Below, one piece after another: positions 1-25,490 of a stretch of 25,490 bases of DNA (its first letter is position 1; each line of letters opens with the position of its first letter). A program made the translations under genes and the position numbers. Under the pieces are notes generated by a model. It did no database searches, was not told the origin of the DNA, and saw only the letters and a program-made list of their open reading frames with translations. Source of the DNA: a virus; the UHGV virus genome UHGV-1755679. The stretch is one strand, 5' to 3'.

Positions 1-66
1 CAAGCAGAAGACGGCATACGAGATAGGAGTCCGTCTCGTGGGCTCGGAGATGTGTATAAGAGACAG
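1..66. other. Illumina Nextera adapter (P7 flow-cell sequence CAAGCAGAAGACGGCATACGAGAT + 8-nt index AGGAGTCC + transposase read-2 adapter ending in mosaic end AGATGTGTATAAGAGACAG); not biological sequence
   Basis: Exact match to the well-known P7/i7 Nextera adapter string read directly at positions 1-66; genomic sequence begins at 67. Confidence 0.95.
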
Positions 67-1703
67 GTATTACCAATACTCCCTCGAGAATGAAGTGTCG
101 GTGATGGAATCAAATTCCCTCCTGTATTTGAGGCATCAAGCCCCCGTCCTTGTGTGTATGTTTTTTTGAAAATTGTCGCCAGCTCCCATTCATCTTTTGT
201 GTCGTAACCATCATTGGCTACAACAATATGTCGGTGCTTTTCCAGCATTCCTGTCTGAATGCTCAATAAAGCACGTCCCGCATCCACCCCGCGCCCATCA
301 TCCCAGCCGCGAATAAATTCTCCCCGTAAATCCGGTAATTTATTGGTGGGGTAGGCTTTTGCCAGATTTGGGTACTTTTCAGAAGAAAATGCTGCACCAT
401 TGCATTTCAGCCACCCCGTTGGAGGTGTGGCTGAGGGCCATGGAACAGGTACACCAACGGGCAGCGCCGAGCCTTCTCCTAAACCAAGGTAATCAAGAAC
501 GCTCTGAATACTGGTCTTACCAAGAATGGCGCGTCCGACACTTGTCAATGCAGTTAACGCGGCACGATCAACACCTGTGAAATAAGGGAGTTTATCTGCT
601 GCTGTAGCTAGTGCCGCTAGAGCAGTGAGCGTAGCGTCTGCCGCTTGCTTTCCATTAGCCAAATCATATGCAGCCTTGACAGCTTTCGGTGTGGCGGCCA
701 GCACTTCGGACGTACTGTCAGTAGCACTACTGAGCTGAGTGATGCCTTTCGCTGTCAATGAAGCTGTTGGCACACCAGTGATCTGATTCCAGGGATGTGT
801 ATGACTGGATGGTGCCTTTCCGGCTGCTAGATCGTATGCAGCTTTAACCGCTTTTGGAGTTGCAGCTAATGTTTCAGAAGTGCTGTTAGTGTCGCTACTG
901 AGCTGAACTATCCCTTTTTGTGTCGTGGTTGCATCCTGGGCTGTATACTTCCCGTTAGCCAGGTCATATGCAGCCTTGACAGCTTTCGGTGTGGCGGCCA
1001 GCACTTCGGACGTACTGTTAGTGGCACTACTGAGCTGAACTAATCCCTTTTGCGTTGTGCTTGCATCCTGCGCCGTATACTTGCTTTTCGCCAGATCGTA
1101 GGCTTTTTTAACTGCCAGCGAACTCGCAGCAACATCACTTCTGGTACTGGTTACAGAGTCTGAAATATCAATGCCGATCGTGCGGTTGATACGCTCGGAT
1201 GTATCAATCATCTCTTGAGTAATGGTAGATACGCCAGCAGGGATATTCACCGTACAAACCAGCAGTTCCCCATCACCTAACTGATATGAATCGGTATAGG
1301 TTCTGGCAACAAATTCAGCTGCATGAATATGTGACGCGGTATTCACCTGATAGGTATCTTCTCCAAGAAGGTATCTTCCCTTCAGCACAATTGCATATTT
1401 CTTGCCTGCGTTAAGTGCAAGAGAGATATCCTTACGATGCTGAATAGTTACCTGGTAGAATTCACCAATATCCACTGACGCCGCGCCAGCGGTTTTATCT
1501 CCATCCACTGAGGTGATTAACAGGTTCATCCCACCGCCAGGCTTAGGCAAGAAACCAGCATAAAATCCCGGGTCAACAATTCCCCTGAATTTTCGGTTTA
1601 GAGCGGCTGACAGATATGGTTCGTGGTATTGCACATCAGCCACCAGAGCCAACGACTCGGGTGATGGGTAAGTAACCGATGTAACAACTGTAACGTCATT
1701 CAT
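67..1703 (-). CDS. S: Tail fibre protein S, N-terminal (constant) part; 3' end truncated by the contig/adapter boundary
   Basis: Minus-strand frame open from ATG at 1701-1703 (SD AAGGA upstream) to the adapter junction, not listed in the ORF track; translation begins MNDVTVVTSVTYPSPESLALVADVQYHEPY and carries repeated ...TQKGxVQLSSxTNSTSEVLAATPKAVKAAYDLANGK... fibre motifs; sits directly downstream of R as in P1. Confidence 0.8.
640..1150. repeat. Tandem near-identical repeat units (about 75-95 bp) inside the S tail-fibre gene
   Basis: Segments about 655-735 and 958-1040 are almost identical (gtcatatgcagccttgacagctttcggtgtggcggccagcacttcggacgtactgt...), with more diverged copies about 825-905 and 1085-1150; these encode the repeated KAAYDLA fibre motif. 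Confidence 0.8.
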
Positions 1704-1714
1704 CAAGCATATCC

Positions 1715-2149
1715 TTATGCTGTAGTCGAGTTTATGGCCATAACTGCGGTATATGTTTTGCCCACATACAGCGAGTCTTCCTGGACACAAATAATGGCGA
1801 TTGGCTTATTCTCGTTATCCAGAACAACCAGAGTGTTGAATGGGTAGTTTTTCCCTTCCTGCAACTGACTTTGATCAAGGTCCATTCGGACAGTAATTAT
1901 CCCGCCTGAGTAGGTTGGGACGAGGTTGATGGTGCAAAATTGACTGGTCAGTTCTGCCAGATCGAAAGCCTTTGGCAGTTCTCCAATCTCATAAGTGCCA
2001 TCTCCTTTCTTAGTAACCAGTGAACTGGTACCGAAAACGGCCTTGCTGATTAAAAATCGAGAGCCTTTGTTAATGGACGATTCAGCGCGCCGCTGATAGT
2101 AATAGTCCAACAACTGACTCTTATAGAGGTTTGTTGAGACGTCAGACAT
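1715..2149 (-). CDS. R: Tail-fibre-associated structural protein R (144 aa)
   Basis: ORF with ATG start at 2147-2149 and SD AGGGAAA; immediately upstream of S with a short gap; position matches P1 R. Confidence 0.65.
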   Translation of the reverse strand: MSDVSTNLYKSQLLDYYYQRRAESSINKGSRFLISKAVFGTSSLVTKKGDGTYEIGELPKAFDLAELTSQFCTINLVPTYSGGIITVRMDLDQSQLQEGKNYPFNTLVVLDNENKPIAIICVQEDSLYVGKTYTAVMAINSTTA

Positions 2150-2227
2150 GATTTTCCCTAATCAATGTTGTGAAGCCTCATTGTAAGATAAGTAACTTGT
2201 CACCCCGCCCTGCGGACGGGGTGATTG

Positions 2228-3064
2228 TCACGCATCGCTATCCAACAGCAAATCATCTGCGCGGGTGCGATCAAACGTAGGCGTTGCTTTCACAATAGTG
2301 CCGCCCGGCGTTGCAGTGATCGGGGCGTTAATCGACGTAACTTCAGTAAGCGAAGTTGTATCCGAAGTTTCAAACCAGCAGAATGCTTTTTCGGTATCAG
2401 AAATCTCATTCAAAGTGATCATGTCGGCCTGTTCATTTACAACAACCGACAAATAGAGCGTAAGCCCATCAAACACTATATGCAGTGGCAGTAGAGGCTT
2501 TACGAACTGATTAAACTTTCTGAGAATTTCTTCTGTAATTGCGGACTGATCTATCGTTCCAGTAATACCCATTGTCCGGGCCAGGTCGTTTATGGGAATA
2601 CTGATCATTCCTCTGGAAGTCAGAAACATCTCGCCGAATGTGCCGCCGGTGGTTTCCAGTGTGCTTTCTGGAATCAGGACCGTGCCATAGGGATGACGTT
2701 CAAAGTCCACCGGAGCATATATGGGATCCCATAAAACCGATATACCGTTAAATTCGCGATAAATTGTCTGGTTTATAGGGCGTTCAGTACCCTTAAAATG
2801 GATCTCATCAAACCGCTGTTGTAACAACATCGGAACGGAAGATGAATTCGACGTTCTGATAGTAAAAAACTGGCCAAGTTCATTTGTCCTAGTCTCCAGA
2901 TCCTCCTTGCTCATGGAGAAAATAGACTTCCGGTTGGTAATTCGCTCCAACCATGGGTCAACAAAGGTGTCCATCATTGACTGAACCAAATCAGCCAATG
3001 ATTTATAAAGTAATGACTTTTGCTTAGCTGATGTAAGCCGGTTATTAAACCAGGAACGCTGCAT
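2228..3064 (-). CDS. Baseplate protein, P1 gene 16 position (about 278 aa)
   Basis: ORF track start at 3067 is GTG; the next in-frame ATG at 3062-3064 has SD GAGGAGG and overlaps the upstream gene stop (TGATG), suggesting translational coupling. Assignment by gene order only. Confidence 0.55.
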   Translation of the reverse strand: MQRSWFNNRLTSAKQKSLLYKSLADLVQSMMDTFVDPWLERITNRKSIFSMSKEDLETRTNELGQFFTIRTSNSSSVPMLLQQRFDEIHFKGTERPINQTIYREFNGISVLWDPIYAPVDFERHPYGTVLIPESTLETTGGTFGEMFLTSRGMISIPINDLARTMGITGTIDQSAITEEILRKFNQFVKPLLPLHIVFDGLTLYLSVVVNEQADMITLNEISDTEKAFCWFETSDTTSLTEVTSINAPITATPGGTIVKATPTFDRTRADDLLLDSDA

Positions 3065-24889: not shown

Positions 24890-24920
24890 ATCAATACCAC
24901 TGCTTGATGAGAACCGCGCA

Positions 24921-25180
24921 AATGTTGACTATGCGCGAAGGTTAATGTGAATAGTTGACTATGCGCGATGTGACTACAGTCAAAAGTTGACTGTAGTCGA
25001 TTTAACTCCACCAAAGATCGACTATGTAAGATATTGTCGGGAGAAACGTTGACTATACGCGATGAAATGACCCTAAAAGCCATCTCAATAGCGACTTGCA
25101 GAATATTGACGCCAGCAAAAATCCACCAGCGTCAACGAATGTCGCCTATAGTCAACTTCTCGCTATCGCATATAGTCAAT
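24921..25180. repeat. Iteron array: at least 5 direct 15-bp repeats (consensus GTTGACTATGCGCGA) phased at about 31 bp, plus 2-3 inverted copies
   Basis: Direct copies at 24923-24937, 24954-24968, 24986-25000, 25018-25032 (diverged) and 25048-25062; inverted copies at about 24971-24984, 25143-25157 and 25166-25180. Located just downstream of the Rep-like ORF, like incA/incC control iterons. Confidence 0.75.
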
Positions 25181-25181
25181 A

Positions 25182-25417
25182 TTATGGATTGCGCTTATGG
25201 ATCTGGAAGCCGATTTTTCTGCCGTTTTTTATCTCTGAAAATTTAAGATATTCAATAGCTTCCAAATCTTTCATGGCTTTTCTGATAACGCTATTTTGCA
25301 CGCTAACGGATGATTTGAGATTAAGCCTTGCTCTAAGGCGCTCAATGCTGACAGGTGCCGGGTTGGCGGGTAGAGCCTCAAAGAATGTATACAGCACCTT
25401 GGCCGTCTCTTTGCGCC
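25182..25417 (-). CDS. Rep_3-family (iteron-binding) replication initiator, C-terminal fragment; 5' end truncated by the contig/adapter boundary
   Basis: The reading frame is open from the adapter junction to the stop at 25182; the C-terminal motif ...SIERLRARLNL ... IRKAMKDLEAIEYLKFSEIKNGRKIGFQIH resembles the conserved C-terminal winged-helix region of Rep_3 initiators (kkGrkI..F.I pattern); followed by the iteron array. Confidence 0.5.
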
Positions 25418-25490
25418 CTGTCTCTTATACACATCTCCGAGCCCACGAGACGGACTCCTATCTCGTATGCCGTCTTCTGCTTGAAAAAAA
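25418..25490. other. Illumina Nextera adapter (reverse complement of the same P7/index/mosaic-end adapter) followed by a poly-A run; not biological sequence
   Basis: CTGTCTCTTATACACATCTCCGAGCCCACGAGAC + GGACTCCT + ATCTCGTATGCCGTCTTCTGCTTG, then AAAAAAA. Confidence 0.95.

Follow-up and report, generated by a model that had tools for sequence, protein, structure and literature searches.

Untrimmed Nextera adapter at both ends of a P1-like phage-plasmid contig

The window, that is the whole 25,490-nt stretch of DNA that was analysed (UHGV-1755679), carries the same synthetic adapter at its two ends, and we hold it as almost certain that it is a short-read contig from an untrimmed library with the Nextera i7 index N705, in which read-through into the adapter made both ends of an internal fragment of a P1-like element. 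The adapter at both contig ends is a laboratory artefact left by the assembler, and nothing counts against its identity. In fact, an earlier note on this DNA had placed one P7/index/mosaic-end adapter at 1-66 and at 25418-25483 in opposite orientations, followed by poly-A, and this placement is exact to the base; its limits for the biological sequence, 67-25417, are confirmed as well and leave 25,351 bp of real DNA. Reading of the sequence together with a script check resolved positions 1-66 into P7, i7 index, Tn5 B adapter and 19-nt mosaic end, and the adapter features of the window are as follows.

1-24, plus strand: Illumina P7 flow-cell sequence CAAGCAGAAGACGGCATACGAGAT, exact match.
25-32, plus strand: i7 index AGGAGTCC as written in the adapter; N705, index read GGACTCCT.
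33-47, plus strand: Nextera Tn5 B (read 2) adapter GTCTCGTGGGCTCGG, exact match.
48-66, plus strand: 19-nt Tn5 mosaic end AGATGTGTATAAGAGACAG, abutting the insert; two copies in the window, one per end.
25418-25483, minus strand: P7/N705/Tn5-B/mosaic-end adapter, the exact reverse complement of 1-66, reading CTGTCTCTTATACACATCTCCGAGCCCACGAGAC-GGACTCCT-ATCTCGTATGCCGTCTTCTGCTTG, the sequence that read 1 gives on read-through.
25484-25490, plus strand: a run AAAAAAA past the adapter end, read directly, which we take to be base calls beyond the end of the library molecule.

The 24-mer at the left terminus heads every i7 primer of the published index table (PMC7589761), where N705 is catalogued as CAAGCAGAAGACGGCATACGAGAT-AGGAGTCC-... 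with the index read GGACTCCT, and the index is identical at both termini of the window. At the right end the reverse complement of P7 occupies 25460-25483, while Tn5 B and mosaic end occupy 25418-25451, again exactly; the order there runs outward from the insert through mosaic end, index and P7 to poly-A, and the left end is its mirror image. In the closest relative the genome, too, goes on with a C, which makes the right boundary ambiguous by 1 nt (25417 or 25418), and we set it at 25417/25418 because the mosaic end is then complete at 19 nt. Nowhere else in the window is the mosaic end found, even with 3 mismatches allowed, and none of 100 shuffled sequences gave two or more matches; moreover, neither P5, nor the Tn5 A adapter, nor the TruSeq adapter occurs in the window, and no other adapter piece lies internally.

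Between the adapters, the window is collinear with known plasmids over nearly its full length. Positions 648-25417 are collinear with and 99.9% identical to NZ_CP065205.1, a closed P1-like plasmid of E. coli, 97 kb long; positions 1015-24010 are collinear with phage P1; and NZ_CP104791.1 and NZ_CP065023.1 each cover all of 418-25417 (25,000 nt) within a span of 25,031 nt. As judged by these alignments, the contig is an internal fragment, about a quarter, of a circular P1-like phage-plasmid of roughly 97 kb. Beyond both breakpoints complete relatives go on collinearly, so that it is the assembly that cuts the two terminal genes, as had been proposed before. The genomic continuation would be ...TGGCGGGAGTGAAACCCGTCC... 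beyond the left break and ...GAGCTTATCCAGCATC... beyond the right one.

At the left end the cut falls in the tail-fibre gene S, close to its 3' end, and the features concerned are the following.

67-1703, minus strand, start codon at 1703: S-type tail-fibre gene, 3' end cut by the adapter junction.
67-236, unstranded: cassette-specific variable stretch, with which the real DNA ends at the left adapter; identical in NZ_CP141768.
237-490, unstranded: Collar domain region, the 5' portion conserved among the tail-fibre cassettes, multi-copy in relatives.
473-498, minus strand: cix/mix-like crossover site TTCTTGATTACCTTGGTTTAGGAGAA, found by a core pattern search, at the border of the constant S part and the invertible cassette.

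The window holds 545 real codons plus 2 nt of S, with four Phage_fiber_2 repeats and a Collar domain. The reading frame stays open through the adapter for 21 further codons, CLLYTSPSPRDGLLSRMPSSA; such coding read-through is meaningless, just as the earlier note had warned. In NZ_CP141768 the identical cassette continues GGSETRPRNIAFNYIVRAA*, with 61 nt more to the S stop; judged from this one relative, S is probably nearly complete, with 19 codons and the stop missing, and the real DNA stops 12 nt before the cassette 3' end. This conserved 3' end is present in 4-7 copies in related plasmids and in none in the window. As for the variable stretch at 67-236, no copy was found in the EC-10 plasmid. 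The stretch at 237-490 has at least 8 copies in the closest plasmid, at 79-94% identity and in both orientations, and pPC6-mcr1 shows repeat families D1-D5 and inverted repeats I1-I25. Leftward from 1014 the gene departs from P1, the S and R genes of which align from 1015.

The crossover site surfaced only with the core pattern WACCNNGGTWT, since the full 26-mer of P1 cixR, searched with as many as 3 mismatches allowed, did not match the window; the two agree at 21 of 26 positions, with 5 mismatches, and share the core ACCTTGGTTT. Because this site lies at 473-498, the window already holds about 420 bp of invertible cassette, and the previous expectation that the invertible C-segment would follow the left break has to be abandoned. 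While the window itself contains a single cassette, close relatives have roughly 8-10 short ones of 450-490 bp in both orientations, each with a Collar domain and the conserved C-terminus ...RPRNIAFNYIVRAA, and the array, roughly 5 kb long, adjoins a putative serine recombinase gene; in relatives this gene, annotated as 'recombinase family protein', flanks the array, which would place it beyond the left break, outside the window.

At the right end the cut falls in a replication gene, and three features have to be distinguished.

24080-24889, minus strand: ORF of the T5orf172 / GIY-YIG nuclease family between parA and repB, not a Rep gene.
24920-25179, unstranded: iteron-like repeats of 19 nt (AAAnGTTGACTATGCGCGA) on the downstream side of repB, four of them direct and two inverted.
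25182-25417, minus strand: 3' fragment of a Rep3/RepB-family replication initiator, Rep3_C (WH2) match with E = 6e-7.

A Rep-like gene had indeed been suspected here, and the Rep3 WH2 domain together with the RepB family annotation of this gene in relatives bears the suspicion out. The fragment keeps 77 codons and the stop of 294, its 5' 649 nt (the first 217 codons) being missing, and in relatives repB extends by these 649 nt past the right junction, with upfA-like genes next to it in NZ_CP065205.1. Only the WH2 domain is seen in the window (PF21205, 30.1 bits against a cut-off of 21.1), while in a full-length relative WH1 reaches 22.0 bits, just below its cut-off of 22.4. The arrays at 24920-25179 would fit a Rep3-family initiator. 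The ORF at 24080-24889 was considered as a homologue of P1 repA and rejected, as it belongs to the T5orf172/GIY-YIG family and the initiator is the next, truncated gene. This type of repB is found in 415 of 5426 complete E. coli genomes, with a median of one place per genome across those 415; a within-genome repeat was therefore rejected in general as the cause of the right break, the type being single-copy in complete E. coli genomes.

The way in which the contig came to end can be pictured from these observations. The library would have been made by Nextera (Tn5 tagmentation) with the i7 primer N705 and its reads used without adapter trimming; where inserts were shorter than the read length, read 1 would run into mosaic end, Tn5 B, index and P7, and past the template end would add a few A calls. 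One or a few such reads may have made a path from genome to adapter, with one strand joined to it at position 67 and the opposite strand at 25417, and the assembler probably followed these paths and halted within the adapter, where no unique continuation exists because every read-through read shares it. On the left, only 12 nt of unique sequence remain before the multi-copy end of the invertible cassette, and this probably left no resolvable alternative. On the right there is no repeat, and for this reason the adapter branch itself or a local dip in coverage is the likelier cause. P7 stands at both ends and P5 at neither, for which the prior is about one quarter if both reads were untrimmed; the two P7 ends hint at single-end data or at trimming of read 2 only, and do not discriminate. 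Neither junction sequence was found in viral_contigs, nor the left one in metagenome_contigs, nor the S protein fused to adapter in the gene index. The earlier explanation of the left break by repeats is thus plausible in so far as the break lies just before a cassette end of 4-7 copies, but the repeat alone does not fix the breakpoint, since the break falls 12 nt short of it; the exact position is set by the adapter junction.

A different account of the breaks would make them chiefly biological, the left one by heterogeneity of actively inverting cassettes and the right one by strain-level variation of the replicon, with the adapter merely filling the dead ends. Its attraction is that the left end lies in the invertible region, some 420 bp past the cix-like site and so near to a multi-copy cassette end, and that both ends fall in variable hot-spots of P1-like plasmids, which PMC6906374 lists as RD-3 (cin, C segment, tail fibres) and RD-4 (partition, replication); most repB relatives, moreover, are 95-99% identical, not identical. 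However, repB is single-copy per genome and 100% identical to known plasmids up to the junction, the assembler had already crossed the 254-bp multi-copy stretch at 237-490 unbroken, and published re-assembly shows that adapters themselves break contigs (PMC11536531). On balance we regard this account as rather doubtful, and we are equally tentative on the bolder form of its left half, according to which the left end marks live inversion among about 8-10 alternative C-termini and co-existing isomers, not the adapter alone, stopped the assembler. If that were true, the raw reads of the library would be a direct census of receptor-binding-domain switching.

It is considerably less probable, and in our opinion very unlikely, that the contig is chimeric or collapsed, with the adapters as signs of a deeper misassembly and an interior not to be trusted. 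The 300-bp tandem repeat of the S gene, with 3.6 copies in the closest plasmid against about one in the window, gives some ground for suspicion, being of the kind that short reads collapse; nevertheless no internal adapter remnants are present, and the collinearity at 99.9% with the closed plasmid NZ_CP065205.1 makes the contig a fragment and not a chimera. In NZ_CP104791.1 and NZ_CP065023.1, moreover, the span differs from that of the window by essentially nothing (25,031 against 25,000 nt), which suggests that the repeat number of the window occurs naturally. Practically no credence is left for the reading in which the 66-nt terminal inverted repeat is biological and marks the true ends of a linear plasmid-prophage or a transposon-like element. 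A repeat search of the window does return a terminal inverted repeat of 67 nt, 100% complementary, which the 20-bp criterion of CheckV would flag. Its 67th pair (g67/c25417) is a chance extension of the 66-nt adapter repeat, and the repeat is wholly synthetic, consisting of P7, a catalogued index, Tn5 B adapter and an engineered mosaic end. Both contig termini carry it, yet closed circular relatives of 99.9-100% identity run on uninterrupted through both junctions, which lie inside open reading frames; by the adapter identity of the repeat this reading is already refuted. Our preferred reading thus remains the read-through of untrimmed adapter.

For users of the sequence, the contig ends are not to be taken as genome ends, packaging sites or telomeres. 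A 66-nt inverted terminal repeat would satisfy repeat-based rules for a 'complete genome', although about a quarter of a phage-plasmid of about 97 kb is at hand; gene callers will output a tail-fibre protein with a false adapter tail of 21 residues and a headless Rep fragment; and unrelated contigs may match each other spuriously through the adapter. All these hazards disappear once the contig is trimmed to 67-25417, with CTGTCTCTTATACACATCT as the adapter trimming sequence. The value of doing so is data hygiene only; the underlying biology is already in the literature, namely a P1-like plasmid, a Min-type array of tail-fibre cassettes and a Rep3-type replicon replacing P1 repA.

Compared with P1 itself, the left part of the window is like the Cin-cix system in that a 26-bp site, which shares 21 of 26 positions and the core with cixR, closes the constant N-terminal part of S; the flanking genes R, 16, bplA and sit show about 98% identity to P1. 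However, the C segment of P1 is one segment of 4.2 kb with Sv/U and Sv'/U', whereas the relatives of the window carry some 8-10 cassettes and no U/U' pair. The replicon likewise stands in the same position beside parA-parB as that of P1 (repA, incA, incC, oriR) and has an iteron-type organisation, but similarity ends at 24010, and in place of repA and incA there are the T5orf172/GIY-YIG ORF and a Rep3/RepB initiator whose iterons differ. The invertible region would rather appear to be a many-cassette system resembling the Min multiple-inversion system of p15B, reportedly the subject of Iida et al. in 1990 and Sandmeier et al. in 1992, than the two-state C segment of P1. Shared with Min are several crossover sites with alternative tail-fibre 3' ends, a putative adjoining Din-family invertase and a P1-related plasmid as carrier, a likeness by description, and cassette number and type in this lineage may differ. 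The P1 record gives 96% identity to p15B for this S/R region, from the very position at which the match of the window to P1 sets in, and the Min system of p15B is cited in PMC6906374.

As for the false repeat, CheckV takes an inverted terminal repeat of at least 20 bp as a signature of a complete genome, and only 33.2% of contigs with such repeats reached 90% completeness in its own data (PMC8116208). In length the repeat here, 66-67 bp, exceeds that signature, but unlike a true one it is synthetic and its contig is about a quarter of a 97-kb genome; artefacts of this sort could add to the incomplete contigs of that class.

Adapter capping in general is a known and common artefact. At least 120 IMG/VR stretches match the Nextera adapter, and in nearly all of the 80 listed it lies within about 75 nt of a stored end, in plus orientation at beginnings and in minus orientation at ends; where the whole contig is in IMG/VR, the adapter position is the true contig end, and two whole contigs among the matches listed carry it at both ends. 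The pattern is that of PMC11536531 (BMC Genomics 2024), in which adapters concentrate at contig ends and their reverse complements at contig beginnings, and which concluded for public microbial assemblies that adapters break contigs. Our case follows the same orientation rule, tens of bases from the terminus and tied to broken contigs. The adapter followed in that study was the universal one of Illumina (TruSeq-type), whereas here it is the Nextera/Tn5 adapter with complete P7 and index; and unlike the published pattern, a single contig carries it at its two ends, which makes a perfect inverted terminal repeat.

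Both ends of the contig are adapter contamination, a common and described artefact, and do not represent any feature of the genome. Read directly and checked with a script, positions 1-66 contain the following elements in order:

First element: P7, CAAGCAGAAGACGGCATACGAGAT
Second element: index, AGGAGTCC
Third element: Nextera Tn5 B (read 2) adapter, GTCTCGTGGGCTCGG
Last element: 19-nt mosaic end, AGATGTGTATAAGAGACAG

By the same reading and script, this block is exactly reverse-complemented at 25418-25483 and followed by seven A at 25484-25490, which fully confirms the claim of the earlier note that one adapter stands at both ends. 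A repeat finder run on the window reports a terminal inverted repeat of 67 nt with 100% complementarity, of which the 67th pair, g67/c25417, is a chance match. In a scan of the window the mosaic end occurs at two sites only, both of them the termini, even with 3 mismatches allowed (two matches were seen in 0 of 100 shuffles), and no P5, Tn5 A or TruSeq adapter is found there. In a published index table, N705 corresponds to P7 with AGGAGTCC, the index read being GGACTCCT (PMC7589761). The right end has the order CTGTCTCTTATACACATCT-CCGAGCCCACGAGAC-GGACTCCT-ATCTCGTATGCCGTCTTCTGCTTG. This is exactly the form of a Nextera read 1 that runs past an insert shorter than the read, and a few A calls past the template end are a familiar read-through tail on four-channel instruments. 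Both termini have this read-through form, from one indexed library.

The DNA between the adapters is well matched by known plasmids. In a plasmid search with 418-25417 as query, 648-25417 is collinear at 99.9% identity with NZ_CP065205.1, a closed P1-like plasmid of 97,334 bp from E. coli EC-10, and many further P1-like phage-plasmids have 98-99.8% identity to the window. Phage P1 itself (NC_005856) matches 1015-24010 at about 98%, with the genes R, 16, bplA, pmgA, sit, pmgB, tub, pmgC, sim, c4/icd/ant, kilA, repL, bplB, pmgG, 21, 22, 23, parB and parA in this order. Since it is collinear with and nearly identical to closed P1-like plasmids, the contig is a true, non-chimeric internal fragment covering about one quarter (~26%) of a circular phage-plasmid. 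Moreover, NZ_CP141768, a relative with the same S cassette, is identical to the window from 67 through the cassette-specific stretch, and 23900-25417 is 100.0% identical to two plasmids; judged by such comparisons, the sequence adjoining both adapters is reliable. The repL-bplB interval (15402-16152) has about 750 bp; in P1 this interval is about 1.9 kb long and contains rlfA, rlfB and pmgF. A substitution at this spot has been reported in other P1-like plasmids (PMC6906374).

The features next to the two junctions are:

Start 1703, open to the adapter, minus strand: S tail-fibre gene, four Phage_fiber_2 repeats and a Collar domain
473-498, minus strand: cix-like crossover site TTCTTGATTACCTTGGTTTAGGAGAA, identical to P1 cixR at 21 of 26 positions
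24080-24889: ORF of the T5orf172/GIY-YIG family
24920-25179: iteron-like repeats of 19 nt, AAAnGTTGACTATGCGCGA, lying downstream of the cut repB; of the six copies, four are direct and two inverted
25182-25417, minus strand: 3' fragment of a Rep3/RepB-family initiator, last 77 codons and stop

Both S and the initiator continue in relatives past the junctions, so the assembly has cut both terminal genes, as the earlier note held. Its warning against read-through was also right, as the S ORF has 545 real codons and then 21 adapter codons, CLLYTSPSPRDGLLSRMPSSA, down to position 1, the same peptide that 1-66 gives when translated in the minus-strand frame continuing S. The remaining two adapter frames give ...GIRDRSPSRGLGDVYKRQ and ...KQKTAYEIGVRLVGSEMCIRDR. 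Such adapter-encoded peptides at protein termini can serve as a quick flag for untrimmed Nextera adapter in protein databases.

On the same strand P1 cixR reads TTATCCAATACCTTGGTTTAAGAGAA, the shared positions including the central ACCTTGGTTT, and the peptide across the site, ...SVLDYLGLGEG..., parallels ...AVIQYLGLREL... in our own translation of P1. The window thus includes the end of the constant part of S, and 67-485 already belongs to an invertible cassette. The conserved 5' part of such a cassette lies at 237-490, a stretch of which the EC-10 plasmid has at least 8 copies at 79-94% identity; 67-236 is cassette-specific. Of the whole array, the window contains a single crossover site and the greater part of a single cassette. 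In NZ_CP141768 the identical cassette runs on as ...GSIGNT-GGSETRPRNIAFNYIVRAA-stop, and by comparison with this relative alone S would be short of only 19 codons and the stop. The earlier note had expected a P1-type C-segment to follow the left break; a cassette is already in the window, and close relatives carry roughly 8-10 short cassettes instead. The repeat that it proposed as the cause is plausible for this end, because a multi-copy element, the conserved 3' end of the cassettes (7 copies in the related plasmid pPC6-mcr1, 4 in the EC-10 plasmid, 0 in the window), starts after only 12 unique nucleotides past position 67 and is followed by the next crossover site. The exact breakpoint is fixed by the adapter junction, not by a repeat boundary.

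This cause does not extend to the right end. There P1 similarity ends at 24010, just beyond parA, and 24011-25417 holds the T5orf172/GIY-YIG ORF and the initiator, whose full length in relatives is 294 codons and whose fragment carries a WH2 domain (PF21205, E = 6e-7). A mechanical ORF at 24778-25083, overlapping the iteron-like repeats, is probably not a gene. The junction, ...GCGCCC/GAGCTTATCC... in a relative and ...GCGCC/CTGTCTC... in the window, is formally ambiguous by one base because the relative's next base is also C. Of 5426 complete E. coli genomes, 415 have this repB type, nearly always once each (median 1 place), and the MOB-suite type of relatives with this replicon is 'IncHI1B'. 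Because the repB type is single-copy, no repeat accounts for the right break, which more likely comes from the adapter path itself or from a dip in coverage.

As to how such ends arise, the real molecule continues past both junctions in the relatives. Untrimmed read-through reads would put genome-to-adapter branches into the assembly graph, and a contig entering the adapter would stop there, because the adapter is shared by all read-through reads and offers no unique exit. Adapters are known to cluster at contig ends, with reverse complements at contig beginnings, and their removal allows contigs to be joined (PMC11536531). A scan of IMG/VR with a 34-nt Nextera adapter matched at least 120 stretches; in nearly all of the 80 listed the adapter is within about 75 nt of an end of the stored stretch, which is a true contig end where the whole contig is present, and its orientation follows the same rule as in the window. 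At least two whole contigs, L010 (30-63 plus, 5038-5071 minus) and L067 (15-48 plus, 14033-14066 minus), have it at both ends and thus show the false inverted terminal repeat that the window has. Dataset 3300045988 is the source of many of the contigs listed. A biological terminal repeat is rejected, as the repeat is synthetic and circular relatives run across both junctions, and collinearity with relatives rejects a chimeric contig. Inversion isomers or strain variants may have contributed to the breaks; both ends do fall within RD-3 and RD-4, regions described as hot-spots of variation in P1-like plasmids (PMC6906374).

Short-read assembly may also have collapsed a tandem repeat that lies in the constant part of S. 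In the EC-10 plasmid (7715-8792 of its locus) a 300-bp unit is repeated 3.6 times with 96% matches; the window (648-1130) has about one such unit, besides a diverged repeat of 132 bp present in 1.9 copies. The difference could instead reflect a natural variation in the number of Phage_fiber_2 repeats; the 25,000-nt query is covered in 25,031 nt, essentially the same length, by each of NZ_CP104791.1 and NZ_CP065023.1, which suggests that the repeat number of the window occurs in nature.

The one practical hazard is that CheckV calls complete viral genomes by an inverted terminal repeat of at least 20 bp, and the perfect 66-nt repeat satisfies this rule, though the contig is only ~26% of the replicon. 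Altogether the artefact and the truncated genes of the earlier note stand, while its account of the tail-fibre locus was imprecise: the invertible region begins inside the window, S is almost complete, and the array is of a multi-cassette kind. Close relatives have about 8-10 cassettes, each 450-490 bp long and present in either orientation, adjoining a serine recombinase gene (L004 1200-8500 and L005 2300-7400, two relatives' loci), each with a conserved 5' part, a specific middle of about 150 bp and a conserved end ...RPRNIAFNYIVRAA, and encoding Collar-domain C-termini. The tail-fibre locus of this lineage thus seems to be a many-cassette inversion array beside a serine recombinase, whereas P1 has a single two-state C segment; by description it is like the multi-cassette tail-fibre system Min of p15B. 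Likewise incA-repA-oriR of P1 is absent and a different, common replicon lies beside parA, with its iteron-like repeats placed like the incA copy-control array of P1.
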